A stretch of DNA of 64,000 nt, taken from NCBI GenBank assembly GCA_015064635.1, contig SVRV01000009.1:8282-72281 (forward strand). Direction: 5' to 3'. The notes under the pieces are model-generated. The model saw only the letters and a program-made list of their open reading frames with translations, made no database searches and had not been told where the DNA came from. The DNA is from Oscillospiraceae bacterium (lineage in GTDB: Bacteria > Bacillota > Clostridia > Oscillospirales > SIG627). Shown one piece after another: positions 44,526-62,393 of the stretch (positions within the stretch are counted from its first letter, which is position 1; each line of letters begins with the position of its first letter). A program made the position numbers and the translations under genes.

Positions 44526-44609
44526 GCACCTGTGGCGGAATTGGCAGACGCGCCAGACTTAGGATCTGGTGTCTTTGATGTGCAGGTTCAAGTCCTGTCA
44601 GGTGCACCA
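44526..44609 (+). tRNA. tRNA-Leu (anticodon UAG), CCA encoded
   Basis: Acceptor GCACCTG/CAGGTGC, anticodon arm CCAGA-CTTAGGA-TCTGG, long variable arm, T-loop TTCAAGT, discriminator A plus CCA. Confidence 0.9.
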
Positions 44610-47931: not shown

Positions 47932-48978
47932 CTATTTTAATCTTATATAGTAAGTGGATTTTCCGACACCGTCGCGTTTAATTTCTCCTGCATTAATCAG
48001 CTTTCGCAATGATGCCTCAACGGAGCTTACACTTAACGACGGGCATAATTCACGTATATCCTGTTTCGTGAATTTTCCGATTTTGTTTTGAATGGCTTTT
48101 CTGACCATATCTACTGCAGGAAGCTTTTCTTCAATTATCGCAAATCTATCCTCAAAATCCTTGTATGCAGCAAGAATCGTACCGAGAACGTATTTAATAA
48201 ATGGTGTGACATCTTCGGTTCCTTCGTGCCAGCCGTTTTGGGAAGCACCAAGTGCATCATAATATAAATCCTTGTTTTTTGCAATTTTTGCTTCCAGTGA
48301 AATATATTTTCCTACATAAAAATTGTTGCGGTACAAAAGCAGTGTTGTAAGAAGTCTTGACATTCTTCCGTTGCCGTCATTAAAAGGATGTATACACAAA
48401 AAATCATGAATAAATAACGGTATTGCAATTAAAGGCTCCAGTTCAAAATTACCTATGACCTTATTATATTCTTCGCAGATTCTATCAAGAGCTTCGGGCG
48501 TTTCAAAGGGGGCAAGCGGAGTGAACAGTATTTCCGAATGACCGTCGGGATAGCTTGCACTTATATAGTTTTGAACGTTTTTTGTTTTGCCCGCCATAGG
48601 ATTATTCATGTGACTGTACATGATCTTATGAAGCTGCAGAATATAGTTTTGAGTTATCGGAATGGCATCAAAGCTTTCGTGAATGATATTTAACGCATCA
48701 CGGTATCCGGCGATTTCCTGCTCATCACGGTTACGAGGGGCGGTTTTTTCTTTGACAAGCTGTTTGATACGGGAGTTTGTTGTAGCAATTCCCTCGATGG
48801 CATTGGATGCCTCGGTGCTCTGTATTTTTGCGATTTCTACAAGCTTTTCAAGCTCTTCCGGTCTTTGCTTAAGGTATAATTCCTGCTTTCCTGCTTCTTT
48901 GTATATTGCGGCAATATATCCGAGAATTTCAGAATCCCATTTTTGCTGTCTTATCAGCGAATAATTAAATACTCTCAT
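47932..48978 (-). CDS. Fic-family protein (class II, internal inhibitory helix) with a C-terminal wHTH
   Basis: Fic motif HPFNDGNGRMSR and an N-terminal SNAIEG inhibitory motif. Confidence 0.9.
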   Translation of the reverse strand: MRVFNYSLIRQQKWDSEILGYIAAIYKEAGKQELYLKQRPEELEKLVEIAKIQSTEASNAIEGIATTNSRIKQLVKEKTAPRNRDEQEIAGYRDALNIIHESFDAIPITQNYILQLHKIMYSHMNNPMAGKTKNVQNYISASYPDGHSEILFTPLAPFETPEALDRICEEYNKVIGNFELEPLIAIPLFIHDFLCIHPFNDGNGRMSRLLTTLLLYRNNFYVGKYISLEAKIAKNKDLYYDALGASQNGWHEGTEDVTPFIKYVLGTILAAYKDFEDRFAIIEEKLPAVDMVRKAIQNKIGKFTKQDIRELCPSLSVSSVEASLRKLINAGEIKRDGVGKSTYYIRLK

Positions 48979-49161: not shown

Positions 49162-51054
49162 TTACACCTTTTGTTTTGAATAATACCTTTCGATAAAGGA
49201 TTCACACTCTTCTGTGGGGAGGGGCTTTGAATAATACCACCCCTGGATGTAATCGCAGTCGGAGGATGACACGAGGGTATTTTGCTCCTCGGTTTCAACG
49301 CCCTCACAGATAACCTTGATGTTCAGGCTGTGAGCCAATGCGATAACGCCGGCAAACAGGTCTTTTCCTCTTGGCGTATCGCTTTTCAAAAGAACATCAC
49401 GGTCAATTTTCACAACGTCTATGGGATAGTCACAAAGATTGACAAGAGAGGTGTAGCCGCTTCCCAGGTCATCAAGATAAACCTTGAAGCCAAGCTCCTT
49501 GCAAAGCATAACGTTTTTCGTTGCGGTCTCTCTGTTCTTTTCCATTGCATCCTCGGTTATTTCGATTGCAAGCTTTGATTTATCGAAGTTGTAACCGTTT
49601 GAAATCATTGTCAGCTTATCAATGAAGGTATCCTCGGAGAGTGTAATTCTTGTGAAGTTGCAGGAAACGGAAATGTCACGGTATTCTGTATTGCTCCATT
49701 GCTCAAGCTGTCTGCATGCAAGAGAGAACATGTGAAAGTCGTGACGGCTTATAAGTCCTGCGTGTTCCATGCTTTCTATATACTTACCGGGCCCCATAAG
49801 TCCCTTTTCGGCGTTGTCCCATCTTGACAGAGCCTCTGCAGAGGTGATTTTTTTCGTTTTTCTGTCTACAACAAACTGCAGATACATCTTAAATTCGTTT
49901 TTGTCAAAGCCCTTTAAGATGCTTTCGGTAAGTTTCTTTTCCTCCTGAACCATATTCATCGAATGAATGTCACAAAATACGATTTGCTTATCGGTGCCGA
50001 AAATATTATTACAGTTTTTTCTCAGATTGAAAAGCAGAATCTCACAGTTTTTGTCGGAGGCGGAAAGATGATAAGCGGCGGCGTGAAATACCAGCTTATT
50101 GTTTTTCTCCTTCATGTTCTCAAAATCATTGAGCTTTTTCATTACCTCCTCAAGTCTTGCCTTGGCATCCTCGTTGCTTGTTGCCTGAAAAGCGAAGGCA
50201 AAGCCATTTTCGGTAATTCTTGCCGATATCTCTCTGTCACCTGTATATTCCGACAGAACAGAGGCGGTATACTTCAGTACTTCCTCAAAGGAGCTGTCTC
50301 CGTGGTATGAGCGAAGGTAGCTTATATCCAAGATGATATATGCGATGTGGTACAGACTTCTGGACATGTCGCCCAGAGTGTATCTGAAATGATACTTGAA
50401 AAATTGAAGATTTCCCATTCCCGTTTCGGCATCTGTCATTTTATCCACACGGATTTCTTCCTTCATACGCTTGATACGTCGGAGCAATCGAGTGATATAA
50501 ATGGCAAGAATTAAAAGGAGGAGAACACCTGCCAATATCCACCAAAAGCTTAAATTTGTTTCCTTTGAGGCGTAGGACAAAAGTATACCGTTTTTTTCTG
50601 TGACGGAAATTTTGTCGGCGGTCTCCTTTACCGTAGCTATCATATCGCTTTCGGCTATCTTTGTAAAGGCAATTCCGCATTTTATGCTTTTGCCGTCTTC
50701 GGTGTAGGAAAGGAGCTCAAAATAGTCTGATGCATAGGCTTCATCTCCCTTCGCCGACGATATAATGTCAGCTTGAAGGTTCTTGCCCAAGGTCTCGCGA
50801 CTTTCTTTATTTCCGTTTATATAAACAAAGTTTATGCCGGAGCTTGCAGAGATTTTCTCGAGCATGTCGGGGATAACTCCCTTGTAGCAGTCGGCGTCAT
50901 CGTCGTAGTACTCAATCGGATAATTGTCGGGGTTTCCCGCAACGTACACATAGTCTGCATATCCTTCGGTTTTTTCGGTGGTTATAACCTTTGCAAAGGC
51001 GGTTTGTGCAAAAAATGCAAACAGAACCGCAAAAAGCAAAATAATCTTTTTCAT
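49162..51054 (-). CDS. Sensor protein: signal peptide/SBP-like domain - TM - degenerate GGDEF - EAL phosphodiesterase
   Basis: EALSRW, EITED, DDLGSGYTSL, KIDRD and EGVETEEQ are present. The GGDEF position reads ENGFA. Confidence 0.88.
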   Translation of the reverse strand: MKKIILLFAVLFAFFAQTAFAKVITTEKTEGYADYVYVAGNPDNYPIEYYDDDADCYKGVIPDMLEKISASSGINFVYINGNKESRETLGKNLQADIISSAKGDEAYASDYFELLSYTEDGKSIKCGIAFTKIAESDMIATVKETADKISVTEKNGILLSYASKETNLSFWWILAGVLLLLILAIYITRLLRRIKRMKEEIRVDKMTDAETGMGNLQFFKYHFRYTLGDMSRSLYHIAYIILDISYLRSYHGDSSFEEVLKYTASVLSEYTGDREISARITENGFAFAFQATSNEDAKARLEEVMKKLNDFENMKEKNNKLVFHAAAYHLSASDKNCEILLFNLRKNCNNIFGTDKQIVFCDIHSMNMVQEEKKLTESILKGFDKNEFKMYLQFVVDRKTKKITSAEALSRWDNAEKGLMGPGKYIESMEHAGLISRHDFHMFSLACRQLEQWSNTEYRDISVSCNFTRITLSEDTFIDKLTMISNGYNFDKSKLAIEITEDAMEKNRETATKNVMLCKELGFKVYLDDLGSGYTSLVNLCDYPIDVVKIDRDVLLKSDTPRGKDLFAGVIALAHSLNIKVICEGVETEEQNTLVSSSDCDYIQGWYYSKPLPTEECESFIERYYSKQKV

Positions 51055-51069
51055 TTTTGCAAAACCTCC

Positions 51070-52473
51070 TTAGATGTTCATTTTCTTTCTCTCTATGCGT
51101 CCCCAGTCAAGCTTTTTCTTTTTATATCCCTTAAAGGCTGTGAGACGGACGAAAGCCATAATAAATCTTAAAGTTGTAACCTCAAAAAAGCAAAGCATAA
51201 TCGCTTTCAGGCAATCCATGGGTTTAATGGTCAGGTCAATTGTCTGTATTCTTGAAAAGAATGCGGTCAGAGTCAAAATTGAGTTGTAGCCTGCGTAGAC
51301 CAACAGGAATAAAAGCATAAAGGGCAGATTCAAAAGACCGATAAAATATGCCGCAACCATTGTGAATACGCCGAACACCTCTATAAAGGGGGAGAGCAGC
51401 TCGTAAAGAAGGAAATACATATACGAAATAAAGCCGACGGGGCCGTATTTTGGATTTGCCATCATTTCACGGTGCTTCCACAAGGTCTGGAAAAGTCCCA
51501 AATGCCAACGCTTTCTCTGCTTTTTCAGGTCACGGAGCTTTTCGGGTACCTGTGTCCAGCAGACAGCATCGGTTGCGTATTTGATAGAGTAGGGAATATT
51601 GTTTGTAAGACAGTAGGAATGAAGCTTTACCACAAGCTCCATATCCTCTCCCATTGTTCCGTGGTCATATCCTCCTGCCGCAATAACGGTTTCCTTTTTA
51701 AACATACCGAAAGCACCCGATATGATAAGAGAGCCGTTGAATTTATCAAAGAGAATTCGTGATGCAAGGAAGGAACGGTCATATTCTAAAAGCTGCATAC
51801 AAGCAAGAATGTTATTCGGAAGCTGGTATCTCTTTACCTTGCCCTCAAAAAGCTCAACGTCATTGGAGGGTCTTACCGTTCCGCCTACCGCTACAATATT
51901 TCCTTCCTCCAGAACGGGTACGACCAGCTTGCGGAGGGAATCGTACTGCAGAACCGAGTCTGCATCCATGCAGATGAAGTAGGGGTATTGAGAAGCGTTG
52001 ATTCCCATATTGAGGGCGTCCGCCTTACCGCCGTTTTTCTTTCTTATAAGAGTAAGGGGAACCTTTTGCTCGTGGGATTCGTAAATGAATTCCTCGGGCT
52101 GACATTCAATGCTTCTGTGGAGGGGACGTCTCACGGGGTGCATGTTGTATGCATCAATGAGCTGCTTTGAGGTGGTGTCCTTGGAGCCGTCATCAACTAC
52201 CACAATTTCATAAAGCTTATAGTCGAGAGTTAGCAGTGATTTGACCGTCTGTACAACGGTTACTTCTTCGTTATAGGCGGGAACAACGATTGAAATCGGT
52301 ATGAAATAGTTCTCGGTGAACTTATTCATAAGTCGGTCTTGCATTTTCTTTTTGTAAAGAGTGGTTGCGCCGATTATTACCGACAAAAACAGAAAAACAG
52401 AATAGCCTATAAGATATATAACGAAGCCTATACTTATAATGTCGAAGATAAGCTTTAAGGTTTCCATTTCCAT
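51070..52473 (-). CDS. Processive family-2 glycosyltransferase (PgaC/IcaA/BcsA-like polysaccharide synthase)
   Basis: VVDDGSKDTT, CMDADS and QRKRW motifs, with N- and C-terminal TM helices. Confidence 0.88.
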   Translation of the reverse strand: MEMETLKLIFDIISIGFVIYLIGYSVFLFLSVIIGATTLYKKKMQDRLMNKFTENYFIPISIVVPAYNEEVTVVQTVKSLLTLDYKLYEIVVVDDGSKDTTSKQLIDAYNMHPVRRPLHRSIECQPEEFIYESHEQKVPLTLIRKKNGGKADALNMGINASQYPYFICMDADSVLQYDSLRKLVVPVLEEGNIVAVGGTVRPSNDVELFEGKVKRYQLPNNILACMQLLEYDRSFLASRILFDKFNGSLIISGAFGMFKKETVIAAGGYDHGTMGEDMELVVKLHSYCLTNNIPYSIKYATDAVCWTQVPEKLRDLKKQRKRWHLGLFQTLWKHREMMANPKYGPVGFISYMYFLLYELLSPFIEVFGVFTMVAAYFIGLLNLPFMLLFLLVYAGYNSILTLTAFFSRIQTIDLTIKPMDCLKAIMLCFFEVTTLRFIMAFVRLTAFKGYKKKKLDWGRIERKKMNI

Positions 52474-53579
52474 TATACCTTCACAGCCTCCTTTTCCGCT
52501 TTTCTTCTGTCCAGATGATAACGCATCATTTCCTTTGCGTATCTGTCGTCACCGTCGAAAACGTTTATCAAATCATGGTATGTATAACCTAACTTCTCGC
52601 AGGAAATTGCACTGTTTTGACGGACATGCCAGTTGGAGTTTGAAAGGTTTTGAACCAAAATTCTGAAGGTTTTGTCATCGGGATAGGATTTTAAAGCCGA
52701 TGTGGAAATTGCCTGATATTCCCAGGTTCTTTCCTCGAGATTCTCCGCAAGATTTTGTAAAATTTCTCTCGCATCCTCGCTTGGGAATTTTTCAAAGTAT
52801 CTTATCGCGGAAAATCTGATTTCTTTGTCTTCCTTTTCGTTTTTGAGAAATTCCAGCATTTCTCTGTCACAGCGGACGTTTCCGAATCTGAAGTAGTTTA
52901 AAATGTTGACTCTCATCTGTACGGAAAAATCGCCGAAGGCACCAAGCAGAGCATCCTTCAGAGCGCTTTTGTCACCCTTGTAGTTCAAAAGCCCGTCGCA
53001 TATGAGCTTCGGGTGGTGGAAGGATAAAATTTTGTCGATTATTTTCAATGCCTGAAGTGTAATTTCGGGAGAGCCCATGCTGTAAAGTGCCTTTATTGTG
53101 TTTTCACGGCAATAAACGTTGGGAGACCGTAAAAGATCAAACAATATGTCTGTAAGCTCACGGCTTTTATACTCTTTTAAGATGTTGTACTTGTGTAATA
53201 TGTAGGGGAAATATGCGATTTTCAAGGTGTCCTTGGTTATGTAGCGGTGTGTGAGATATTCAAATACCGAAAAGGTTTCAAAAAGATACTTGTCCACCGC
53301 TTTCGGGTCTGTTTCGTATATTTTCTCCAGCGCCTTGTCAAAGGCAGTGATGCCTGCGGTTTTGTCAAGCTTCTTTTTAAGAAACTTCTTGTGATTTTCG
53401 TCAACCTCTTTGCCTCTTTTGATTCGCTTTATTTGTTTGTTTATTATATCCTCAAGCTTTTTGGAATTGGAGGAGAGCGCCTTTTCTCTGTGTCTCAAAA
53501 TGAAAATGTATACGATGTTATATGCAATCATGCTCACGCATACGGCAATAAAAACATAAATCATCATTTCAATGTTCAT
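52473..53579 (-). CDS. TM-anchored HEAT-like repeat protein
   Basis: ATG at 53579 in an ATGA overlap with the upstream gene. N-terminal TM helix and repeated helical units (NVYCRENTIKAL..., NWHVRQNSAISC...). Confidence 0.65.
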   Translation of the reverse strand: MNIEMMIYVFIAVCVSMIAYNIVYIFILRHREKALSSNSKKLEDIINKQIKRIKRGKEVDENHKKFLKKKLDKTAGITAFDKALEKIYETDPKAVDKYLFETFSVFEYLTHRYITKDTLKIAYFPYILHKYNILKEYKSRELTDILFDLLRSPNVYCRENTIKALYSMGSPEITLQALKIIDKILSFHHPKLICDGLLNYKGDKSALKDALLGAFGDFSVQMRVNILNYFRFGNVRCDREMLEFLKNEKEDKEIRFSAIRYFEKFPSEDAREILQNLAENLEERTWEYQAISTSALKSYPDDKTFRILVQNLSNSNWHVRQNSAISCEKLGYTYHDLINVFDGDDRYAKEMMRYHLDRRKAEKEAVKV

Positions 53580-55753
53580 TTTATTTTTTCCTCCTTCCAC
53601 AGATTTTGCATTATATAATATGAGCTTTTAAGTCTCTCGTGATAGGTTACTTTATTTCCCCAGCCGTCAAGCTCAATTTCGCCAAGCTTTATTCTTTCGC
53701 TTCCGCTTCCTATACCCGCATACATTTCGTCAATGCTGATATACTCAATGCCGTAATTTCCGTCATAATAATCGTCGTGTACATGCATTTTTGACGGGTC
53801 TGCAAAGTTCATAAGCTGCCAGGGAAGCTTGATTTCCACGTAGTCTCCGCTTGCACAAAAATCTGCAAGGGAATTGAAGTCGGGACTTTTGGGGTTTGCG
53901 TTTCCGTAAAGAAGCTTACCCGTTTCATAGCTTTCTGCAACAGTGTCCTTTGTTTCGGGTGAAAGGGCAACGGCTGTACGGAGAATAAGCTCAACGGTTA
54001 CAAAAAGGGGAGAATTTTTTTCGGGAATGTTCTTTTTCAAATACGTGTCGAATTTATAAATATCCTGCGAATAGGTGGAGCGGAGTGCGTCGTAACGCTC
54101 CTGAACCATAATTCTGCTGTTATCTTTTCCGTTTAATACAATTACAAAATCCGCATCTCTGTCGAATTTAACGTCAAAGTTCTCACAGTAATTGCTTCCG
54201 CTTTTCGGCGCTATATCAAGGGGTATGTACAGCGTATCCTTTTCAAAGTCGAGTCCCTTTTTCTTTACGAGGAAGTACATAAACCTTTCGTCATATTTCA
54301 CCGAAAGCTCATGTGTGCCCGATATTATTTTGTCTTCCGCCTTCCACTCGGACACATCTCCGTCAACGTAGCATACGGATTCCTTTTCTCCGGGGTCAAA
54401 GGACAAAAGACCAAAGTACTGCTCATTTGTCTGATAGTCAGACCAATATGCCGTTCTGGAAAGGTTTACCGAGTGCATGGTGTTCCAGGTACGCTTGAAC
54501 CATTCGTCCTGCCAGGTGAATACACAGCCGCCGTTACAGCCGGTCGCCTTTATATCCGCCCAACATTCAATGAGCGCCTGTCCCTGAGCGCCCTCTGAGG
54601 TGTTACCCTGATTACGCCCCGTGTCCTTGTCAACCTGCGCCATACCTCTGCCGGTGGATACGCCGAATTCCGAAATTACAACGGGCATTGTGTGATGGTT
54701 GTTGAGCATCTGCAAATATGCTCTGTATGCGTTGACTCTGCCTTGCTCGTCACGGAAGGCCTCTTTTGATTCTATTCCGAATACAGACCAATCCTCGGCA
54801 AAGCTAAGATAGTAGGGATAGTAGGGATAAACGTGGTAGGAGGCAAACTGACCCGGAATAAAAGCGGCGGTCGTTTTTATGTGTTCGGTATCAACACGGG
54901 CACATTTAAGGAAGAAATCCTTGATAATTTTGGGATATTCAAAGGGATCGGTGGTAGGCCAGTTGGAAAAGGCAACAAGTCTTTGTGTGTTGTAACGCTG
55001 GGTTTCGTATTCAATCATTTTGTCGCCAACCATGGTCAGCATTGTTTCAAAGGGGGAGGCATCCTCCGAGGTGTACATATATTTCCCCTTGTAAGAGGAA
55101 TATCCCTCTTTATCTTTATACAAATCGTCTGTATATGCAACGGTGGAGTCATCCCATTCAACACCTACAATGTAGCCGATAACCCATTTTGAGATATCTT
55201 TTTTGTAAGAGCCGTGTCCCGCACTGGCAACACGTCCTATATTGAGCTTTCTCTTTCCGTGAATAACGTCAACCGTTATTTTGGAGTTTTCCAGGAAGGT
55301 GTCATAAAACTCATCGTCGTAGGCGTCTCTGTGCGAGTTGAGTACGTAATCGTTTACCCAAACGCCGTGAAGCAAATAAAGGGGGGTGGGATTGTTTATA
55401 TTATAATCGTAAAAGGCGTTGTAAAAGGTGTCGTTTTGTATGGTGTAAATACGTATGGTGTTTGCGCCCATCTCCTGAATGTACCCAAACCATCTGAGAT
55501 AGGTTTCTTCGTCTGCGGCAAAGGAGGTTGCCCATTCGCCCGGGATGCCCGAGCCCATATTTACTCCCTTTATTTCAAAAGGCTGAAATTCTTCGCCTTT
55601 TTTCATATATATTTCTTCGCCTTCTACCTTCATGAAGTATTCCGTCGGCTTTTCGTCACCGAAATCCAGGTAAAAGCCTTCATAAAAATGAAGCCAGTCA
55701 AATACAAGGAGTACAAGTATAACAGATACTACTACAATCAGAAATTTTTTCAA
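53576..55753 (-). CDS. TM-anchored TIM-barrel glycosidase-like protein
   Basis: N-terminal TM helix. GANTIRIY...NDTFY and VISEFGVSTGRG resemble clan GH-A acid/base and nucleophile regions. 725 aa. Confidence 0.6.
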   Translation of the reverse strand: MKKFLIVVVSVILVLLVFDWLHFYEGFYLDFGDEKPTEYFMKVEGEEIYMKKGEEFQPFEIKGVNMGSGIPGEWATSFAADEETYLRWFGYIQEMGANTIRIYTIQNDTFYNAFYDYNINNPTPLYLLHGVWVNDYVLNSHRDAYDDEFYDTFLENSKITVDVIHGKRKLNIGRVASAGHGSYKKDISKWVIGYIVGVEWDDSTVAYTDDLYKDKEGYSSYKGKYMYTSEDASPFETMLTMVGDKMIEYETQRYNTQRLVAFSNWPTTDPFEYPKIIKDFFLKCARVDTEHIKTTAAFIPGQFASYHVYPYYPYYLSFAEDWSVFGIESKEAFRDEQGRVNAYRAYLQMLNNHHTMPVVISEFGVSTGRGMAQVDKDTGRNQGNTSEGAQGQALIECWADIKATGCNGGCVFTWQDEWFKRTWNTMHSVNLSRTAYWSDYQTNEQYFGLLSFDPGEKESVCYVDGDVSEWKAEDKIISGTHELSVKYDERFMYFLVKKKGLDFEKDTLYIPLDIAPKSGSNYCENFDVKFDRDADFVIVLNGKDNSRIMVQERYDALRSTYSQDIYKFDTYLKKNIPEKNSPLFVTVELILRTAVALSPETKDTVAESYETGKLLYGNANPKSPDFNSLADFCASGDYVEIKLPWQLMNFADPSKMHVHDDYYDGNYGIEYISIDEMYAGIGSGSERIKLGEIELDGWGNKVTYHERLKSSYYIMQNLWKEEKIK

Positions 55754-55773
55754 AACCTGTACCTCCTTTTTTC

Positions 55774-57255
55774 TTAATCAGATACTTCGTTATATTTTTT
55801 GGTTTTTGATTCTGCGCTGTGCTGTCTTAATGTTTCTATATTTTCATCCAGAAAGGCAAGTCGCTTTGCAAGGAAATCCTTCAGCTGTGAAATTGCTTCC
55901 TCATAGCTTCTGGGGTTTCTCTCGGTGGGATGAAGCAGGTCATAATCCTTTTCAAAGGTGTGACCCCATTTGTCATAGTTTCGGTCAACAGCCTCTCCCA
56001 AATACTCAACCGTGTCGTCAATAAAGCCGTAAAGGTATTCGTCGCTGAAAACTGTTTCTCTCAGCTCATAGTATCTCTCGATTACTCTTTCGGTGAAGTC
56101 CGAATCCTTAAAGAGCATTTGAAACCAGATACAGTTGTTTACAGAAAAGCTGTCCGTTGGCATTGCCTGCTCCTGATAGGCATCGCAGGCGGAATTGAAG
56201 TCCCACACGCACATTTTGTATTTTCCCGAGGTGTCCTTGTAAACATAGGTAGAAAGTGAGCCTGCGTCATAATTGCAGGTAAGCTCGTTTATAAGGAAGA
56301 AATCCACAAAGGAATCTACGTCAATGTAGGTTTTATAGCCGTATTTTACGTTGTTGTAATCATATGAATAAAGAGCTTTTTCAAATTGAGAAAACTCGTT
56401 TTTGATAGCTTCCTTCAGCTCGGGCGTCATATTTTTTGAGCCGGGATATACAAGCTCGTGCTGTGTTTTTGCTCTGGTAGTGTAGTTTGTAAAGGGATAA
56501 AGCTTGTTTTCCTCTTCCGTATCTCCCCAGTCAAGCCTCAGGGCATATCCCGAGAAGGAGTTGTCCTTTTTGTTCACCGCAAGACTGAGTCTTGCTCCTT
56601 CTTTTCCTGCGGTAATCGTTTCGAGAGCAAGGTAGAGACCTCTGTATTCACCGTTTATGTACAGCTCGGTAAAACGCACATTGGGGCTGTACTCCATTAT
56701 TTCTCCCGCAATGTTATACCACATATAGTTGCGGATGAGGGTTTTGTCAAGGAAAGGGCCGTGAAGAGCCCACTCGTGATGGGCGTCCATACCGAGAAAG
56801 CCTTGCTCGTTGTTTGTGCCGTCGGCATTTGTAAATCTTATAAAATAATTTGCTTTGTCAAATCTTCTTGATGAATGACCTCTGACTCTTATTTGAGCCT
56901 CGCCCATATCAAGAGCGGTATCTGTGGGGTGATTGTAGGCTTTCTCATTATTTACAACCTTTACGGTTGCTTTGACGGTGGTGGTTCCGTCCTCGGCAAG
57001 AGTGTAGTCGATAACGTTGTAATCTTCATCGTATATGGGTTTTCCCGGAATCTCCACACCGTTTGTATCAATACTTACAATGGGTAAATGTGTGCAAAGC
57101 ACTTCTTCTGTATGTGACTCGCAGGGCACTTTTTCCTCTGCCGAAATGTGCTCAATGTACCTTTTGCCGTTATCTGTGGGGTGACTTTGACTTATAAAGA
57201 TTATCGCAATCAGCGTAAGGGCGAGTGCGGATAATCCTATTAACTTGTACTTCAA
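55774..57255 (-). CDS. CotH-family protein (atypical kinase fold)
   Basis: N-terminal TM helix. Central region LIRNYMWYNIAGEIMEYSPNVRFTELYINGEYRGLYLALE is typical of CotH. Confidence 0.82.
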   Translation of the reverse strand: MKYKLIGLSALALTLIAIIFISQSHPTDNGKRYIEHISAEEKVPCESHTEEVLCTHLPIVSIDTNGVEIPGKPIYDEDYNVIDYTLAEDGTTTVKATVKVVNNEKAYNHPTDTALDMGEAQIRVRGHSSRRFDKANYFIRFTNADGTNNEQGFLGMDAHHEWALHGPFLDKTLIRNYMWYNIAGEIMEYSPNVRFTELYINGEYRGLYLALETITAGKEGARLSLAVNKKDNSFSGYALRLDWGDTEEENKLYPFTNYTTRAKTQHELVYPGSKNMTPELKEAIKNEFSQFEKALYSYDYNNVKYGYKTYIDVDSFVDFFLINELTCNYDAGSLSTYVYKDTSGKYKMCVWDFNSACDAYQEQAMPTDSFSVNNCIWFQMLFKDSDFTERVIERYYELRETVFSDEYLYGFIDDTVEYLGEAVDRNYDKWGHTFEKDYDLLHPTERNPRSYEEAISQLKDFLAKRLAFLDENIETLRQHSAESKTKKYNEVSD

Positions 57256-57274
57256 CCCTTTCGCCTCCCGAAAA

Positions 57275-57955
57275 TCAGTTTGAAATCTCGTCGTTCTGCA
57301 TTACAGTGTTTACGTATTCGATGCCTGCAATTTTGTACATTTCGTCGCAGATGCCGATGTTATTCTTTCTTTCTGCCTGTGTGAGCATTTTTGCTGTTAT
57401 TTCGTAAATGAATTCAATTGATTCACTTGTGGAGTTTTTTACTCTCAAAACGGCGCCGGCTCCGAAGAACTTATACATTACTGCCTGAATTGCTGTTTCT
57501 GCAGTTCTGCCTCCTCGCACGATTACCAGCATACGGTTGTTGTTCTTTATTGCTCCGAAGAGGAGAAGAAGGAGGAAAACAACTCCGCTTCCCATGCCTG
57601 CAACAATATAGTCACCGACACCGCAACAGATACCCACGATTATTGTCCAGAATATGTAGACTGTGTCACGGGAGTCCTTGATAGCCGTTCTGAAACGGAC
57701 GATGGAGAGGGCACCCACCATACCGAGTGAGAGTGCCACGTTATTTCCGATAACCGTCATAACCATAGAGGTAAGTACAGTGAGTATTACCAGCGAAACA
57801 TTGAATTTTCTGCTGTAAATCGTGCCCTTGTGTGATATCATATAGGATATGAATATCAAAAAGCCAAGAATAGCGGCAGCCAGAATATTTGCGGCTATTT
57901 CTTGAAATGTGAGCGCCGATTGGTCTTTTATTAGATTAAAAATCTGATTCTTCAT
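57275..57955 (-). CDS. DUF4956 membrane protein
   Basis: 226 aa, several TM helices plus a soluble C-terminus. The VTC-DUF4956-CotH neighbourhood is typical of the family. Confidence 0.75.
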   Translation of the reverse strand: MKNQIFNLIKDQSALTFQEIAANILAAAILGFLIFISYMISHKGTIYSRKFNVSLVILTVLTSMVMTVIGNNVALSLGMVGALSIVRFRTAIKDSRDTVYIFWTIIVGICCGVGDYIVAGMGSGVVFLLLLLFGAIKNNNRMLVIVRGGRTAETAIQAVMYKFFGAGAVLRVKNSTSESIEFIYEITAKMLTQAERKNNIGICDEMYKIAGIEYVNTVMQNDEISN

Positions 57956-59205
57956 TTTCTCGATTCTCCTGTTTGGTTGTTTATATTAACACCGTTTTTC
58001 GCATCTTTTGCTACGATGTTTTCAAGATAGACACGAATTGGAGTGCCGTCCATTCTGCAAGGTCTGCTCATAAGCATAAGCTGACTTGAAATATCACAGC
58101 CCTTTACAAAATAGTTTCCCGCCGTGCCTCTCGCATCCGCTCCCGCCATCAAAATCTTATATCCGGTGCTTTCAAAAATGATTTTGTCGCTCATATCACT
58201 TCTTTTTGAGTACGGATATGCTACGGTAGTCGGCTTTTTGCCCGTCCATCCTTCAATGCACTTTACGGATAAATCGTAATCGTTTTTAACTGCAGAAGCA
58301 AAGCTTTCGGCGTCTTCGTTTTCCTTCATGCTCATACCCACACGGTTTTCTTTGTCATAAACGTGCAAGCCGTAGGTGTGTGAGCAAATATTTATTTCTC
58401 CGCTTTCGGACATTTCGCAAAGCTCCTCCCAGGTACAATAGGGGGCGGACTGTCCATCTCTTGTTCCGCCGTTGGAAAGGGAATCCCAGGTTGCATCTAT
58501 TTGTGCACCGATTACATTGAAATCCGCTTTCATCCCATGCTTTTTTAAAAGCGGCCACGCATTTGTGTACACACCAAGGGAGCCGTCATCAATTGAAAGA
58601 ATCACTGCTTTTTCGGGAATATCACTTTTTTCTTCCAGAATACTCAGCAGCTCATCGGAGGTTATTGTAGTGTAGCCATTTTCCTTTAACCATACAAGGT
58701 CTTCTTCAAACGCCTCGGGAGTTATGGAATATTCGTCAAATTCAATTCCGCTGTCCACGTCTTCCTCGGTTACAAAATTGTGATACATGATTACACTGAC
58801 AAGCGAAAGCTTATCAGGGTCAGTCACAGCCTCAAAGGAGTGTGAAGTGTAAATCTTGCGGCTTCTTTTGTTGCAGCTTTGAATTTTATAAAAGTAAGTA
58901 TTTGGGAAGCTTACGTCACTGTCACGGAAAGAGCCGCTGTCCGATGTGCCTATGCTCAAAAACTCTCCGTCGGGGGAGCTGCTCCTCAACACCTCATATT
59001 CGTAGCCGTCGGTATACTCCCACATTATCACAACGTTACCGGGGTCCTGCCATACCGCAGTCTCGCCCGTTACCGATTCTTTTGGGTCTGTCTCCATTTT
59101 GTTTTCCGCAGGTGTGTTGTCAGTGGGGGATGGCGCTTGAGTCGTTGCGCACGAACAAAGAGATGCAATAAGCAAAGCTGTTATTAAGAACAAAAATCTT
59201 TTCAT
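57952..59205 (-). CDS. Lipoprotein polysaccharide deacetylase (NodB homology) with an Fn3-like N-domain
   Basis: Lipobox ASLCSCA. SIDDGS (metal/catalytic Asp pair) and later His-containing motifs. Confidence 0.82.
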   Translation of the reverse strand: MKRFLFLITALLIASLCSCATTQAPSPTDNTPAENKMETDPKESVTGETAVWQDPGNVVIMWEYTDGYEYEVLRSSSPDGEFLSIGTSDSGSFRDSDVSFPNTYFYKIQSCNKRSRKIYTSHSFEAVTDPDKLSLVSVIMYHNFVTEEDVDSGIEFDEYSITPEAFEEDLVWLKENGYTTITSDELLSILEEKSDIPEKAVILSIDDGSLGVYTNAWPLLKKHGMKADFNVIGAQIDATWDSLSNGGTRDGQSAPYCTWEELCEMSESGEINICSHTYGLHVYDKENRVGMSMKENEDAESFASAVKNDYDLSVKCIEGWTGKKPTTVAYPYSKRSDMSDKIIFESTGYKILMAGADARGTAGNYFVKGCDISSQLMLMSRPCRMDGTPIRVYLENIVAKDAKNGVNINNQTGESRK

Positions 59206-59212
59206 ATTTCAC

Positions 59213-59905
59213 CTATAATTCCGCATAGCTCTGTTGTCTTGCCAGGGCGTATTTGCTCACCGACAGCTCGCTTTTGTTTATGCTGTTGATAAATTGTCTG
59301 ATATAGTCCAGCAAAAAGCCGTTAAACTTTACCTCAAGCACTACGTTGAACTTATCAAGCACGGGGTACATCACGAGATTTTCGGAAAACAGGTCGAAAT
59401 TTGCTTCGGTTGCCACAATGTTGTTGTCAAAGGTTACTCTTATTTTGTTTTCCTTTGCAATGTATGCCTTTCGGTTGTACTGAACTATGGTTTTGGGACG
59501 GTAGCATTTGCAGTTCATAAGCCCCCAGCATTCTCTCGCAAAATCCTCTTCGTAGTTCAAAAGCACGTCATACCTGCCTTGTATTAAAGCCTCGGCATCT
59601 GCTTTTGGCAGACGAAGTGAGCGTTTCCTTTGGGATGCACCTTGCTTTTGCTTCATTTCAAGCATGGCAAAATTGTGCTTGGGGTCATAAACCCTCAATC
59701 TTATTTTTCGCCTTGTTTCCACACCCTCCAGCTTTTCGAAAAAATCGTCATCGTAAACAGTGTCAAAATACAGTGAGCGTATGCAGTATCCGTCCGCTCC
59801 GTTGTGCTCATCCTGTATCATAAGTCCGTCAAGATAATGAGATTTTGTCCGAAATTCCTCAAGACTTATAAGAAACTTTTTTTCTTCTCTTGTAACTACA
59901 TTCAT
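59213..59905 (-). CDS. VTC-domain (polyphosphate-polymerase-like, CYTH superfamily) protein
   Basis: 230 aa. EKKFLI...IRSLYFDT...RRKIRLRVY...LEMKQK pattern matches bacterial VTC-domain proteins. Confidence 0.82.
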   Translation of the reverse strand: MNVVTREEKKFLISLEEFRTKSHYLDGLMIQDEHNGADGYCIRSLYFDTVYDDDFFEKLEGVETRRKIRLRVYDPKHNFAMLEMKQKQGASQRKRSLRLPKADAEALIQGRYDVLLNYEEDFARECWGLMNCKCYRPKTIVQYNRKAYIAKENKIRVTFDNNIVATEANFDLFSENLVMYPVLDKFNVVLEVKFNGFLLDYIRQFINSINKSELSVSKYALARQQSYAEL

Positions 59906-59916
59906 AATATCTCCCG

Positions 59917-60043
59917 AAAATAAAAAGCCGCAACAATAGGGAGCCTTTTTTCAAGGCCCTCATTATTGCAGCTGGACTGGCATAGTATAAAACCTTAGCC
60001 TCTTGGCTTTGCGTCACCGACTTTCGCCGATTTTGCTAAATAT
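59917..60043 (-). promoter_or_regulatory. c-di-GMP-I (GEMM-I)-like riboswitch: aptamer about 60043-59962, terminator 59969-59917
   Basis: The minus strand reads GCAAAAUCGGCGAAAGUCGGUGACGCAAAGCC. The P1 strand GCAAUAAU is shared with the hairpin GCAAUAAUGAGGGCC/GGCUCCCUAUUGUUGC, which is followed by GGCUUUUUAUUUU. Confidence 0.65.
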
Positions 60044-60061
60044 TAAGTTTTGACTTCGATA

Positions 60062-60090
60062 ATTCTAACACATTTTTATATGTTTGTCAA
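60062..60090 (-). promoter_or_regulatory. SigmaA-type promoter of the riboswitch-led operon
   Basis: On the minus strand: TTGACA (60090-60085), a 17-nt spacer, then TGtTAGAAT (-10 at 60067-60062). The -35 overlaps the stop codon of the GGDEF gene. Confidence 0.6.
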
Positions 60091-62393
60091 AGGTTTTTTG
60101 AAAAAACCCAAAGAGTTTCCTTTGCGGAGTCTTTATCACTGCCAAGATTATACACGCTGAGGACAACGTTTTCTCCGTTGGCTTTTTTATAGGTTACCTT
60201 GGGAACAATGTCTTCGGAGATTTGTCTCTTTATGGTATCGTAGTTCAAAAAGCTTATAACGGCTCTGTGATAATCGGGATCAACCGAATCGTCAACGTAT
60301 TTTGTGAAGAGCATTGAGAAATCGTTCTCATCCTCGTTGTAGCCGAGATAGGATGGCATAAGGATGCGGTGTGCCTTGTCGGTTTCCAGATTTACTCTGT
60401 AAATGCCGTTGTAATGTTCCTTGAGAACGGAAAGCAGGGTATCAATCTCTCTTATTCCCGTCTTGGACATTATGTAGTTTTTCTCGTTGTCACTTGTTAT
60501 ACTTGCTTTTTCCTTGTTCTGGTAATAGCTTGCCTTTGCATCATACATTCTGATTTCGGCTTCTCTTACCAGCTCCTCGGTATTTGTATTCTGTGTTCTG
60601 TGGGAAACACCGATGGCAACATGATAATTCTTGAGAGTGAGCTGCTCTGTGAATAACTCGAGGCAGTGCTTAACAGTTGCTTGCTCTGTGTTGCTCACGA
60701 AAACCAAGAACTCGTCACCGCCCATACGGTAAACCTTTTGGTCAAAGAACAGATTCTTCAGGGCGTTTGCTATGTATATGAGCATTTCGTCGCCTGCAGC
60801 ATGTCCGTAACGGTTGTTCCTGATATGAAGCTCGTTGACGTCAATGTATATGCAGGTGAACAGGGGCGATTTTTCTTCGTCATAGAGAAGAAGGTCTTTT
60901 TTGTAGGCAACACGGTTTAAAGCGCCCGTAAGAGAATCGGTTGTTGCAGCGGTGTAGGTCTTGTTAAGATGGTTTTTATTGTGAATGGCAATAGAGAAGC
61001 AAACGGCGATTTTTTCTACAATACCTTTGGCGCAAATGATATTTTTGGGATTTATCAGTCCCAAAACGCTTACATTGTCATTGTTGGTTTGTGATATTGC
61101 ACTGAATATTACGGATTTTATACCGTGCTTGTTTAAAAAGTCATAGAATTCGGGATTTATTTTGCGAAGATGCTCATCGGGTCTGATGTTTGCTACGGAC
61201 ATTTCGGTCATAGCGGTCGTTTTGAGCTGAATCGCATAACGAAAAATTTCCGACTTGAAGTATTTTCTGTCCTCCTCCGAAAGAATATACTTTTCATTCT
61301 TTGGGGAGGTGTAGTGGTGATCCTCTCCCTCTGTATCAAAAAACATAGCCGAGCAAGCGGAGGAAACGTCCATTACCTTTTTGAGAGAGTTTTTGATGTT
61401 TTCCGGTTTTTCGTTTATTTCAAGGAGCTGTTTTCGTATGTCAGAAGCTTTTTTTGTAATTAACGCGAGAAGCTTTTCGTTTTTAATAATAATGAGGAAA
61501 TAGATAACGATGATTAAAACAATCACAAGAAATGTAAGAGTCAGGAAATTTGTGATTTTATGTGTTTTTGCAAACACTTGGGTTTCGTATCTGGCAAGCA
61601 TAATGCCCCAGTCAAATTCCTCCAAAGTGGAGAAGTGAACGTATAAATCCTCATCTCTGTATATGGATCTGAAGGAGGAATAACCCTTGTCGGAGTTTGC
61701 TATATCCTCGTATGAATAGCCTTCGTTGTACTTTCTTGTTTTAAGCTGTGAGAGCTCTCCCGGGTTTTTGTTTATGGTATCAATTACAAATTTTCCCGTC
61801 TCTTTATCGTACACAAAAAGCTGAGCATCCAGCTCTTTTGCCATATTGTTGTACTTGTTTCCGATGTTTTCAAGGAGAATTACACCATATAGAACACCGA
61901 CAGTCTTACCGTCACTTACAATGGGCACGGAGCTTCGTATAATTTCCTTTCCCTCTCTTGTAAGGTCTTCTACTCTGCCACTTACGTATTCGCCTTTTGC
62001 GACTTCCTCTTCAAAGGAAATCTTACCGTCCAAGTCTATTGAACCCATTTTTGTGACAAAGGTATTGTCGGGATTTAAGACACCTATGTTGGAGAATAGA
62101 CCTATGGGCTCGAAGGATTCGAACATTATATCGTAGCTTTCTCCGTCGGCATACAGCTTTGCGGCAAAATTTGCCATTGTAACAAGGTTCTCACGGTCGG
62201 ATTTAAGCTGAAGAGTAAGGTCATCCTTAATCTGCTTTGTCTGGAGGTGAAGCATCTCATTTGCTTCTTCCTCGGCGTTTTTATAGAAATAGCTTATTAC
62301 CGACAAAAATACTGTGAATATCAAAATCGCTGTGATAACGGTGGAAATAATATTACTTTGTCTGCGGTTTTTCTGCTTATAGGTTGTGGGCAT
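60087..62393 (-). CDS. Sensor diguanylate cyclase (TM - Cache-like extracytoplasmic domain - TM - linker domains - GGDEF)
   Basis: Intact RMGGDEF with upstream D/N metal ligands (IDVNELHIRNNRYGHAAGD). Two TM segments flank a ~250-aa periplasmic-type domain. Confidence 0.88.
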   Translation of the reverse strand: MPTTYKQKNRRQSNIISTVITAILIFTVFLSVISYFYKNAEEEANEMLHLQTKQIKDDLTLQLKSDRENLVTMANFAAKLYADGESYDIMFESFEPIGLFSNIGVLNPDNTFVTKMGSIDLDGKISFEEEVAKGEYVSGRVEDLTREGKEIIRSSVPIVSDGKTVGVLYGVILLENIGNKYNNMAKELDAQLFVYDKETGKFVIDTINKNPGELSQLKTRKYNEGYSYEDIANSDKGYSSFRSIYRDEDLYVHFSTLEEFDWGIMLARYETQVFAKTHKITNFLTLTFLVIVLIIVIYFLIIIKNEKLLALITKKASDIRKQLLEINEKPENIKNSLKKVMDVSSACSAMFFDTEGEDHHYTSPKNEKYILSEEDRKYFKSEIFRYAIQLKTTAMTEMSVANIRPDEHLRKINPEFYDFLNKHGIKSVIFSAISQTNNDNVSVLGLINPKNIICAKGIVEKIAVCFSIAIHNKNHLNKTYTAATTDSLTGALNRVAYKKDLLLYDEEKSPLFTCIYIDVNELHIRNNRYGHAAGDEMLIYIANALKNLFFDQKVYRMGGDEFLVFVSNTEQATVKHCLELFTEQLTLKNYHVAIGVSHRTQNTNTEELVREAEIRMYDAKASYYQNKEKASITSDNEKNYIMSKTGIREIDTLLSVLKEHYNGIYRVNLETDKAHRILMPSYLGYNEDENDFSMLFTKYVDDSVDPDYHRAVISFLNYDTIKRQISEDIVPKVTYKKANGENVVLSVYNLGSDKDSAKETLWVFSKNL

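Follow-up and report, generated by a model that had tools for sequence, protein, structure and literature searches.

The minus strand of the window, that is, the whole 64-kb stretch of DNA that was analysed, carries a diguanylate cyclase gene, a leader and a predicted operon of eight genes headed by a gene for a VTC (polyphosphate-polymerase-like) protein. The gaps between the eight genes range from -25 to +20 nt and their order is conserved, which suggests that they are co-transcribed; in the operon interior no convincing minus-strand terminator was found. The genes are the following:

60087..62393, minus strand: dCache-GGDEF diguanylate cyclase, 768 aa, directly upstream of the leader, with the canonical signature N526...D535 plus GGDEF
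49162..59905, minus strand: predicted regulated operon, comprising the eight genes below
59905-59213, minus strand: VTC (polyphosphate-polymerase-like) protein
59205-57952, minus strand: PgaB/IcaB-like deacetylase
57955-57275, minus strand: DUF4956 protein (Pfam)
57255-55774, minus strand: CotH protein
55753-53576, minus strand: unannotated protein, 725 aa
53600-52473, minus strand: HEAT-repeat protein
52473-51070, minus strand: PgaC/IcaA-like GT2 synthase
51054-49162, minus strand: EAL phosphodiesterase with a degenerate GGDEF domain (EALSR, DDLGSG, KID, EGVE, QGW)

Comparison with Pfam, NCBIfam and PDB sequences gave no match for the 725-aa protein, and for the VTC protein none was obtained among PDB sequences. 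The upstream cyclase, found at 44 close orthologous loci and also at L083 and L092, carries Asp535 at the specificity position instead of the Hypr Ser, and is of the canonical type by the criterion of PMC6456294. With a diguanylate cyclase upstream, an EAL protein at the operon end and a synthase and deacetylase of the PgaC/PgaB-like kind in between, this context fits c-di-GMP biology.

The identical leader occurs in four independent metagenome contigs. Of 79 orthologous leaders, which come from other uncultured Clostridia, 75 contain the same riboswitch aptamer. This count combines a regular expression, which detected the core motif in 71 of the 79 testable leaders of VTC orthologues, with an Rfam recheck, passed by 16 of 16 motif-positive loci and by four of eight motif-negative ones (L047, L057, L061 and L072, true aptamers that the expression missed). 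No Rfam riboswitch of any class was found at L060, L067, L068 and L077, nor in the more distant operons L090, L094 and L096, whose VTC proteins are about 53% identical; the association is thus confined to part of the family.

The aptamer and its ligand

The 5' part of the leader region contains a promoter of the sigma-70 type and the aptamer:

60085..60090, minus strand: -35 box TTGACA, overlapping the TGA stop (60089-60087) of the upstream cyclase gene
60062..60070, minus strand: extended -10 box TGtTAGAAT, which by the usual spacing would place the transcription start near 60055
59964..60047, minus strand: c-di-GMP-I (GEMM-I) aptamer (RF01051, 60.7 bits; 88.1% of cells paired in 54 leaders)
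60039..60042, minus strand: P1 5' strand UAUU, with partner 59967-59964 (AAUA) (95.8% of cells paired in 54 leaders)
60025-60022, minus strand: GAAA tetraloop of the aptamer
60010-60008, minus strand: AAA linker, invariant in 54 leaders
59998-59994 and 59984-59981, minus strand: tetraloop receptor, CUAAG and UAUG, matching the consensus (11-nt type)
60013 and 59977, minus strand: interhelix pair C60013-G59977, from the RF01051 alignment
60037, 60010 and 59968, minus strand: equivalents, in Vc2 numbering, of the ligand contacts G20 (A60037), A47 (A60010) and C92 (C59968)

A preliminary description of this DNA had quoted the two promoter boxes, and they were found as given (60090-60085 and 60070-60062), with a 17-nt spacer, an 11/12 match and a TG extension. 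The strict pattern TTGACA-17-TGnTAnAAT is kept in 40 of 67 orthologous leaders, the majority of the remainder being near-matches.

From 60047 to 59964 the Rfam covariance model RF01051 is matched end to end (model positions 1-87 of 87) with 60.7 bits and E = 2.1e-09 for the 64-kb window, both strands and 4227 families; the score lies clearly above the gathering score of 35, the threshold on which the preliminary description had made its GEMM-I-like reading depend. In the Rfam scan of 59800-60200, the other matches were chance-level ones to snoRNAs and miRNAs. By family, the segment is a genuine class I cyclic-di-GMP riboswitch aptamer. The strings quoted for its core are present on the minus strand (ATATTTAGCAAAATCGGCGAAAGTCGGTGACGCAAAGCCAAGAGGC at 60043-59998 and GCCAGTCCAGCTGCAATAAT at 59981-59962) and the family hallmarks are complete, apart from the G20-equivalent base, which is A. 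Folding of the 161-nt leader gives z = -3.1 against dinucleotide shuffles.

The first hairpin (60036-60011) reads GC/AAA/AUCGGC-GAAA-GUCGGU/GAC/GC, with 98.5-100% of cells paired and two pairs changed on both sides; it follows the rule for the GEMM first hairpin, that is, stems of 2 bp and 6 bp, a 3-nt internal loop between them and a GNRA cap (PMC1950547). The AAA linker between the hairpins is missing in only 2 of 322 GEMM examples (PMC1950547). In the second hairpin, the tetraloop receptor accompanies the GAAA tetraloop and the bases of the interhelix C-G pair are present, the tertiary contacts themselves being predicted; two positions of its lower stem are mismatched in 52 of 54 leaders.

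The preliminary description had drawn P1 as ATATT-TAGC against GCTG-c-AATAAT. Its outer AU part stands, U60039-U60042 pairing with A59967-A59964 and the outer pair showing U-A/U-G exchange, and this segment alone is P1. The inner TAGC/GCTG part does not, because both strands are taken by invariant helices of the family: the Rfam alignment pairs G60036-C60035 with G60012-C60011 at the base of the GAAA-capped hairpin (invariant pairs in 54 of 54 leaders), and G59972-C59971-U59970 pair with A60008-G60007-C60006. P1 is weak, with four A-U/U-A pairs and little covariation, and we infer its register, as would be the case for its alternative: a register with U60038:A59967 meets two mismatches after two pairs, and the one-step shift, with four continuous pairs (95.8% conserved), is preferred.

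The base before GCAAA, on which the preliminary description was silent, is A60037, at RF01051 model position 11. In Vc2 the ligand-contact nucleotides are G20, A47 and C92 (PMC4744006); the equivalents of the last two are present here (A60010 and C59968), while that of G20 is A. In support of this mapping, the distance to the A47 equivalent is 27 nt in each of Vc2 (20/47), Vc1 (12/39), Bc1 (11/38) and the present leader (60037/60010) (PMC4744006, PMC11218506). An A at this position makes the ligand specificity and the threshold uncertain, the input being either c-di-GMP alone or c-di-GMP plus 3',3'-cGAMP. The physiological ligand is most likely c-di-GMP.

A sensor with the same fold and ON mechanism that responds to 3',3'-cGAMP or to both dinucleotides, of the GEMM-Ib or a bispecific type, is unlikely, even if A60037 itself speaks for it: an A at position 20 is the criterion for GEMM-Ib and is found in cGAMP riboswitches; in Vc2 the G20A change weakens c-di-GMP binding from picomolar to about 53 nM and lets cGAMP bind at about 120 nM; and Cbe 1-2 of Clostridium beijerinckii, a natural A20 aptamer, binds c-di-GMP at 30 nM and cGAMP at 463 nM (PMC6140456). 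Moreover, the single change A20G turns a Geobacter aptamer c-di-GMP-selective (PMC6456294). However, A20 aptamers retain nanomolar c-di-GMP binding and A20 alone is insufficient for cGAMP selectivity, Vc2 G20A and Cbe 1-2 being bispecific or c-di-GMP-preferring (PMC6140456). The flanking genes code for enzymes of c-di-GMP turnover, namely a GGDEF cyclase of the canonical Asp type and an EAL phosphodiesterase, and no cGAMP synthase (Hypr Ser/Thr GGDEF or DncV/CD-NTase) was seen within the 64-kb window.

The orthologues also argue against a dedicated change of signal, since A and G alternate at this position within one operon: at 71 loci there are 42 A and 29 G, the nearest neighbour is an A leader for 12 of 14 G leaders, and L042 (G) differs from L031 and L045 (A) at this base only. 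The A at the alpha-base contact position is shared with Geobacter GEMM-Ib and with Cbe 1-2 (PMC6140456, PMC6456294), the latter comparable also in its Clostridium origin and still preferring c-di-GMP (PMC6140456); the present case differs from these A20-type aptamers in that the alternation runs through the orthologues of one operon, which has c-di-GMP enzymes at its flanks. A speculative and rather improbable reading is that the alternation acts as a natural single-nucleotide dial of the c-di-GMP threshold (picomolar- versus nanomolar-type), the A form also admitting 3',3'-cGAMP, for instance from CBASS-type cyclases. If this were true, gut Clostridia would time and again adjust or widen the input of a single, self-contained cyclase-riboswitch-matrix-phosphodiesterase module, and the VTC/DUF4956/CotH set, known from NELoc-2 and the pel accessory genes, would be a surface-matrix system induced by cyclic dinucleotides. 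The near-isogenic leaders L042, L031 and L045 offer natural material on base 20 and its relation to affinity and specificity.

The terminator and the direction of the switch

Downstream of the aptamer, the leader ends with the following elements:

59926..59973, minus strand: intrinsic terminator hairpin, with a 20-bp stem (-27.4 kcal/mol alone)
59917..59925, minus strand: U-tract UUUUAUUUU, directly 3' of the stem
59903..59915, minus strand: Shine-Dalgarno GGGAG (59915-59911) and ATG (59905-59903) of the VTC gene

U-tracts also follow the hairpins of the orthologues. The preliminary description had proposed a terminator that shares a strand with P1, and the strings quoted for it were placed on the minus strand (GCAATAATGAGGGCC at 59969-59955, GGCTCCCTATTGTTGC at 59945-59930 and GGCTTTTTATTTT at 59929-59917). 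Both the hairpin and the sharing hold; its extent had to be corrected, since A59973 to G59961 pair with U59938 to U59926 and the stem is 3-4 bp longer than drawn. Thus, besides the P1 strand, the stem draws in the foot of the second aptamer hairpin and C59968, the C92 equivalent. Its 5' arm (59973-59953) contains 10 nt of the Rfam-defined aptamer (59973-59964), as well as A59963 and U59962 of the longer P1 strand drawn previously. Since 59973-59964 belong to both folds, aptamer and terminator are mutually exclusive, as had been proposed.

This exclusion is kept in orthologous leaders with differing terminator sequences: in 19 of the 20 leaders examined, terminator and aptamer have 10-24 nt in common. 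The exception is L064, whose weak Rfam alignment (40 bits) falls short of the ...GACUGACCGCA strand with which its terminator begins; the apparent lack of overlap there is most likely an artefact of the alignment. Of the aptamer cells, 88.1% are paired over 54 leaders, against 9-54% with the partners slid; for the terminator, which was recovered independently by RNAalifold, the value is 95.8%, with ten pairs changed on both sides, against 35-59% when slid. The leaders of the close clade are so similar, however, that they offer only limited covariation, and with related sequences shuffle controls exaggerate significance.

A terminator with a U-tract lying between aptamer and start codon, and sharing one arm with an aptamer helix, is the arrangement expected of a transcriptional switch, and the mutual exclusion of the two folds predicts that the ligand turns it ON. 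Very probably, then, the class I aptamer and the overlapping terminator form a c-di-GMP-responsive ON switch of the eight-gene, exopolysaccharide-type operon, for which ligand binding and read-through are predicted. The ON logic agrees with the published model for GEMM RNAs with overlapping terminators (PMC1950547) and with the experimentally demonstrated Bc2 ON switch (PMC4933901).

In the proposed mechanism, the promoter (60090-60085, 60070-60062) would start a leader RNA of about 150 nt, whose first 90 nt or so would fold into the GEMM-I aptamer, the next 45 nt or so to be transcribed being the window of competition. With ligand bound, the three-helix junction, the AU-rich P1 and the second-hairpin base would stay closed and 59973-59962 would be unavailable; only a small hairpin, 14 nt from the U-tract, could then form, and the polymerase would read into the operon. 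Conversely, without ligand, 59973-59962 would pair with 59938-59926, completing the 20-bp terminator followed by UUUUAUUUU, and transcription would end before the ribosome-binding site. The unconstrained fold reaches -44.7 kcal/mol and the best aptamer-enforced fold -25.7 kcal/mol; since the terminator fold is far more stable, the decision must be kinetic, taken during transcription, with OFF as default. The c-di-GMP might be supplied, for example, by the adjacent dCache-GGDEF cyclase, and the EAL phosphodiesterase at the operon end would provide negative feedback. We infer both the direction and the size of such a response.

It is very improbable that the switch acts mainly on translation, or is turned OFF by a ligand that hides the ribosome-binding site or favours termination. 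Class I switches of V. cholerae are indeed not termination-based and those of C. difficile are OFF (PMC6366702), and one minimum-energy fold shows a weak pairing of the P1 5' strand, once freed (60044-60038), with the segment 59912-59906 that separates the Shine-Dalgarno from the ATG. However, this pairing consists of seven A-U/G-U pairs and belongs to the ligand-free fold, giving again OFF without ligand; furthermore, the leader holds no separate anti-terminator element that ligand binding could disrupt, and the 5' arm of the terminator is aptamer sequence, so that the bound aptamer excludes the terminator. This reading was rejected on the geometry of the overlap. Equally hard to credit is a constitutive terminator of the upstream cyclase gene next to a non-functional aptamer relic, with the operon driven from elsewhere: from the cyclase stop (60087) to the hairpin there is no further terminator and the terminator fold is thermodynamically dominant, but the aptamer exceeds the threshold by a wide margin and hardly varies among about 75 species-level genomes, aptamer and terminator are still found together in a distant clade without the upstream cyclase, a conserved promoter separates cyclase and aptamer, and the gap from terminator to ATG is only 11 nt and contains no good promoter.

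Known systems and the regulated genes

The mechanism is not new: the ON architecture dates, as a prediction, from 2007 and was shown experimentally in 2016, and any Rfam-based annotation would find the aptamer. A terminator overlapping the 3' hairpin was reported for 78 of 322 GEMM RNAs, together with the ON model (Weinberg et al. 2007, PMC1950547); the present leader shares with these the GAAA tetraloop, its receptor, the AAA linker and the terminator overlap, while VTC, DUF4956, CotH and GT2 are absent from the table of GEMM-associated gene families (PMC1950547). Bc2 of Bacillus thuringiensis, located upstream of cap, was found to be ON by in vitro read-through; it is likewise a class I aptamer in a Gram-positive 5' UTR, with an intrinsic terminator adjoining the ORF and a surface/biofilm-related function, and its repression/de-repression logic, demonstrated there, is predicted here (PMC4933901). 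Likened by description, the two differ in their target, a collagen adhesin for Bc2 and an eight-gene VTC/CotH/GT2 cluster in the present case.

The structural reference, Vc2 of Vibrio cholerae, has the same core (GCAAA-6 bp-GAAA-6 bp-GACGCAAAGC), the A47 and C92 equivalents and the interhelix C-G pair; unlike the present leader, it has G20 and is not termination-based (PMC6366702). Class I switches of C. difficile, such as Cd1, are also from Clostridia and act by transcription termination, but they are uniformly OFF, the ON role being filled there by class II (PMC6366702, PMC11477304). Since the functional class I switches of C. difficile, which has been studied best among Clostridium-class organisms, are all OFF, the direction is not transferable by taxonomy, and it is the geometry of the overlap that predicts ON. 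The present leader would thus be a class I ON switch in Clostridia, against the C. difficile paradigm.

No published description of the gene context of the riboswitch (VTC/deacetylase/DUF4956/CotH/GT2 cluster) was found. In the literature searched, outside which lie the supplementary gene lists of Sudarsan 2008 and Kellenberger 2015, there is no published link of GEMM or c-di-GMP riboswitches to CotH, VTC, DUF4956 or NELoc-2, and no riboswitch is reported in searchable literature at NELoc-2 or pel accessory loci. By this prediction, cyclic dinucleotides would directly control a poorly understood VTC/DUF4956/CotH/HEAT/GT2 cluster in Clostridia of gut and rumen, in about 75 species-level genomes, which leads to the testable hypothesis that its genes build a c-di-GMP-induced surface polymer.

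The cluster is the same gene set as NELoc-2 of C. perfringens and the Gram-positive pel accessory genes. In NELoc-2 the order is, as here, VTC, a small membrane protein, CotH, a hypothetical protein of about 700 aa, a HEAT-repeat protein and a GT2 'chitin synthase'; in Gram-positive pel clusters CotH, polyphosphate-polymerase and DUF4956 accessory genes are neighbours, with a link to c-di-GMP enzymes in the bifidobacterial versions (PMC2879425, PMC7112168). Unlike these loci, the present operon lacks pelDEFG and contains an inserted gene for a PgaB-like deacetylase. The small membrane protein of NELoc-2 is annotated as tubulin/FtsZ, and its counterpart here is DUF4956 by Pfam.

The aptamer and the competing terminator

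Direct reading of positions 59500-60400 on the minus strand located every string quoted in the preliminary description of this leader. When the whole window was scanned with Rfam 15, one riboswitch match came out: RF01051 (c-di-GMP-I), minus strand, 60047-59964. It covers model positions 1-87 with no truncation and scores 60.7 bits (E = 2.1e-09), well above the gathering score of 35, in agreement with the family assignment made earlier from sequence. A permissive rescan of 59800-60200 returned, beyond RF01051, chance-level matches only.

Features of the leader (all minus strand)
60090-60085, TTGACA
60070-60062, TGtTAGAAT
60043-59998, aptamer core
60036-60011, first hairpin, GC / AAA / AUCGGC-GAAA-GUCGGU / GAC / GC (Rfam alignment)
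60010-60008, AAA linker (Rfam alignment)
59998-59994 and 59984-59981, tetraloop receptor CUAAG...UAUG in the second hairpin (Rfam alignment)
59981-59962, GCCAGTCCAGCTGCAATAAT
G59977, in the AG bulge of the second hairpin, able to pair with C60013 (Rfam alignment)
A59973-G59961 and G59959-U59953 paired with A59947-U59926, 20-bp hairpin of the minimum-energy fold
59969-59955 and 59945-59930, hairpin arms as first described
59929-59917, GGCTTTTTATTTT
59925-59917, UUUUAUUUU, directly after the 20-bp hairpin
59915-59911, GGGAG, 3' of UUUUAUUUU
59905, ATG start of VTC, 3' of GGGAG

The promoter is present as claimed: in a consensus scan it scored 11/12, its -10 box being TG-extended and its spacer 17 nt long. 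Of 67 leaders, 40 fit the strict pattern TTGACA-17-TGnTAnAAT, and most of the remainder come near to it. The 190-nt leader of the window has identical copies in four independent metagenome contigs and is therefore not an assembly artefact.

The closing helix P1 lies outside the Rfam model; its best register is U60039-A59967, U60040-A59966, A60041-U59965 and U60042-A59964. The extra TAGC/GCTG pairing first proposed for P1 was rejected, because it clashes with invariant helices of the family.

In the predicted fold the 5' arm of the 20-bp hairpin begins with A59973-U59970, which in the aptamer form the 3' strand of the second hairpin's base, and goes on through G59969, C59968, the P1 3' strand (A59967-A59964), A59963 and U59962; the proposal that this P1 strand doubles as a terminator arm is thus borne out. 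Folding energies were computed for the leader RNA 60055-59917: left free, it folds with the terminator at -44.7 kcal/mol, while forcing the aptamer pairs gives at best -25.7 kcal/mol; the terminator hairpin alone accounts for -27.4 kcal/mol. When the aptamer is enforced, only the top of the hairpin forms (59959-59941); 14 nt then separate it from the U-tract, an arrangement that does not make a terminator. The aptamer and terminator folds exclude each other, in keeping with the mutual exclusion suggested for P1 and terminator. Both the energies and the lost geometry suggest that termination is the default. The ligand could act only by keeping the aptamer closed while the polymerase crosses the U-tract, so control would be kinetic; the bound aptamer would allow read-through, as in an ON switch. 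It is highly probable that this leader is a working class I riboswitch for a cyclic dinucleotide and that it switches transcription ON.

Conservation and the ligand-contact base

Orthologous leaders were collected using the downstream VTC protein as anchor (67-91% protein identity), giving 80 loci in as many species-level genomes; these belong to uncultured Clostridia (Congzhengia, Ructibacterium, Fumia, Oscillospiraceae and others). The core motif occurs in 71 of the 79 loci having upstream sequence; all 16 motif-positive loci rechecked with Rfam and four of eight motif-negative ones pass the gathering score, bringing the aptamer to 75 of 79. Nearly all aptamer-bearing leaders carry a hairpin and U-tract, and the hairpin 5' arm extends 10-24 nt into the aptamer in 19 of 20 leaders with Rfam coordinates, the exception (L064) having a weak, probably truncated alignment. 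Distant-clade hairpins, such as GACUGACUGCAAGUUUAAAUUGCAGUCAGUU, have no loop or 3'-arm sequence in common with that of the window; conservation lies in the design rather than in the sequence.

In an alignment of 54 close leaders (A1), 95.8% of terminator cells are paired and 10 of 20 pairs are changed on both sides, versus only 35-59% of cells paired when partners are slid by 1-3 columns; for aptamer plus P1 the values are 88.1% and 9-54%. Three elements came out of RNAalifold with no structure supplied, namely the first hairpin, the terminator and the core of the second hairpin; 11 pairs are compensated. Since the leaders are related, shuffle statistics overstate significance, and the argument rests on the controls with slid partners and on the distant clade, which is independent. 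No Rfam riboswitch was found upstream of some otherwise syntenic VTC-DUF4956-CotH operons, namely those of L060, L067, L068 and L077 and the more distant ones of L090, L094 and L096, with about 53% VTC identity. The distal part of the second aptamer hairpin tolerates length variation, as indicated by insertions in leaders that keep the core motif (about 40 nt in the distal loop in L013:3264-3450, about 10 nt in several others).

The base preceding GCAAA, which the preliminary description did not mention, is A60037; it aligns to model position 11, whose consensus base is G. The ligand is contacted by G20/A47/C92 in Vc2 and G12/A39/C104 in Vc1 (PMC4744006), and by G11/A38/C81 in Bc1 (PMC11218506). 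In each of these, 27 nt separate the first contact from the second, the distance also seen between A60037 and A60010, so A60037 is the G20 equivalent, with A60010 and C59968 as the counterparts of A47 and C92. G20 reads the Hoogsteen edge of one ligand guanine, and cGAMP riboswitches have A there; with the G20A exchange, Vc2 binds c-di-GMP at 53 nM but also cGAMP at 120 nM, and the natural Clostridium beijerinckii aptamer Cbe 1-2 at 30 and 463 nM, respectively (PMC6140456). Conversely, A20G turns a Geobacter aptamer c-di-GMP-selective (PMC6456294).

Of 71 orthologous leaders, 42 have A and 29 have G at this base (column 13 of A1), and the nearest neighbour is an A leader for 12 of the 14 G leaders of the close clade. 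Over about 139 nt, leader L042 (G) differs from L031 and L045 (A) solely at this base; these are natural near-isogenic G20/A20 pairs governing the same operon. Neither the operon nor the c-di-GMP enzymes beside it change with the A/G swaps, which points to c-di-GMP as the physiological signal for both alleles, and c-di-GMP is considered the likely ligand. The threshold is probably higher for the A allele, to which cGAMP may bind in vitro. The main rival, a dedicated cGAMP role, would be in line with the A of cGAMP riboswitches, but it is improbable given the unchanged operon and enzymes.

The predicted target operon and its flanking cyclase

Eight minus-strand genes lie downstream of the riboswitch, with a sensor cyclase gene upstream.

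Genes of the locus, in order (all minus strand)
60087-62393, dCache-GGDEF protein, directly upstream; TGA stop inside the riboswitch -35 box
first downstream gene, VTC (PF09359)
57952-59205, PgaB/IcaB-like polysaccharide deacetylase, between VTC and DUF4956
after the deacetylase, DUF4956
after DUF4956, CotH
53576-55753, 725-aa protein, between CotH and the HEAT-repeat protein
after the 725-aa protein, HEAT-repeat protein
after the HEAT-repeat protein, PgaC/IcaA-like GT2 synthase
49162-51054, degenerate-GGDEF/EAL phosphodiesterase, last gene, 15 nt after the GT2 gene

Gaps between the eight genes range from -25 to +20 nt, with no convincing minus-strand terminator between them. The EAL protein retains EALSR, DDLGSG, KID, EGVE and QGW, an intact EAL signature. 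The 725-aa protein has no Pfam, NCBIfam or PDB sequence match; it shows an N-terminal membrane or signal segment and is conserved in 64 of the 80 loci. In the dCache-GGDEF protein Asn526, Asp535 and the GGDEF motif are intact; Hypr cGAMP-forming enzymes have Ser at the position of Asp535 (PMC6456294), so from its residues this protein looks like a canonical diguanylate cyclase. No terminator lies between its gene and the riboswitch promoter; read-through from the cyclase would also be riboswitch-gated.

The most economical reading is a self-contained module, for which we infer co-transcription and feedback: the sensor cyclase would raise c-di-GMP, the riboswitch would then open the surface-polysaccharide operon, and the co-transcribed phosphodiesterase would lower c-di-GMP again. 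A phosphodiesterase as last gene of the controlled operon implies negative feedback on the riboswitch's own ligand, an arrangement described in reviews as rare for c-di-GMP riboswitches.

Known systems and neighbourhood

The same gene order is found in Clostridium perfringens NELoc-2, namely VTC, a membrane protein with a tubulin/FtsZ annotation (in the place of DUF4956), CotH, a 685-aa hypothetical protein (the positional counterpart of the 725-aa protein), a HEAT protein and a 'chitin synthase' (PMC2879425). A second match is the CotH/polyphosphate-polymerase/DUF4956 set of accessory genes located next to Gram-positive pel clusters (PMC7112168). In the founding description of GEMM, the 5' side of a terminator overlaps the 3' side of the second hairpin in 78 of 322 instances, and higher expression upon ligand binding was proposed (PMC1950547); for the class I switch Bc2 of B. 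thuringiensis, in vitro transcription and in vivo assays showed ON control via read-through (PMC4933901). In C. difficile, every functional class I switch is OFF and class II switches are ON (PMC6366702, PMC11477304), whereas the present switch is a predicted ON class I in Clostridia, which is thus noteworthy but not new in kind. Among the papers that could be searched, none was found linking a c-di-GMP riboswitch to VTC, DUF4956, CotH or NELoc-2 genes, and these families are missing from the 2007 table of GEMM-associated genes (PMC1950547). The value lies not in the switch itself, but in three things: its association with an enigmatic set of genes is conserved, a cyclase and a phosphodiesterase flank it, and a base that contacts the ligand has swapped between A and G repeatedly.

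The order VTC-DUF4956-CotH-unk725-HEAT is kept in nearly all loci, and the cyclase lies upstream in 44 close ones. The deacetylase is present in the window and in 15 of the 80 orthologous loci, and is therefore a lineage-specific insert in a cluster that is otherwise conserved. In L053 it follows DUF4956 instead. Among further metagenome contigs found by using the GT2 gene as anchor, the full cyclase-aptamer-VTC...GT2-PDE arrangement occurs in L083 and L092 and, in diverged form, in L085/L086; the PDE follows GT2 also in L082, L084 and L089.

A few kb past the operon is a tRNA-Leu gene (anticodon UAG; 44526-44609, plus strand). Between the two, on the minus strand, lie a Fic-family gene (47932-48978), a terminator-like hairpin (47758-47742) and an N6/N4 DNA methylase (46024-47295) with a weak SNase-like C-terminal match; the Fic/methylase region beside the tRNA may be a small mobile or defence islet.
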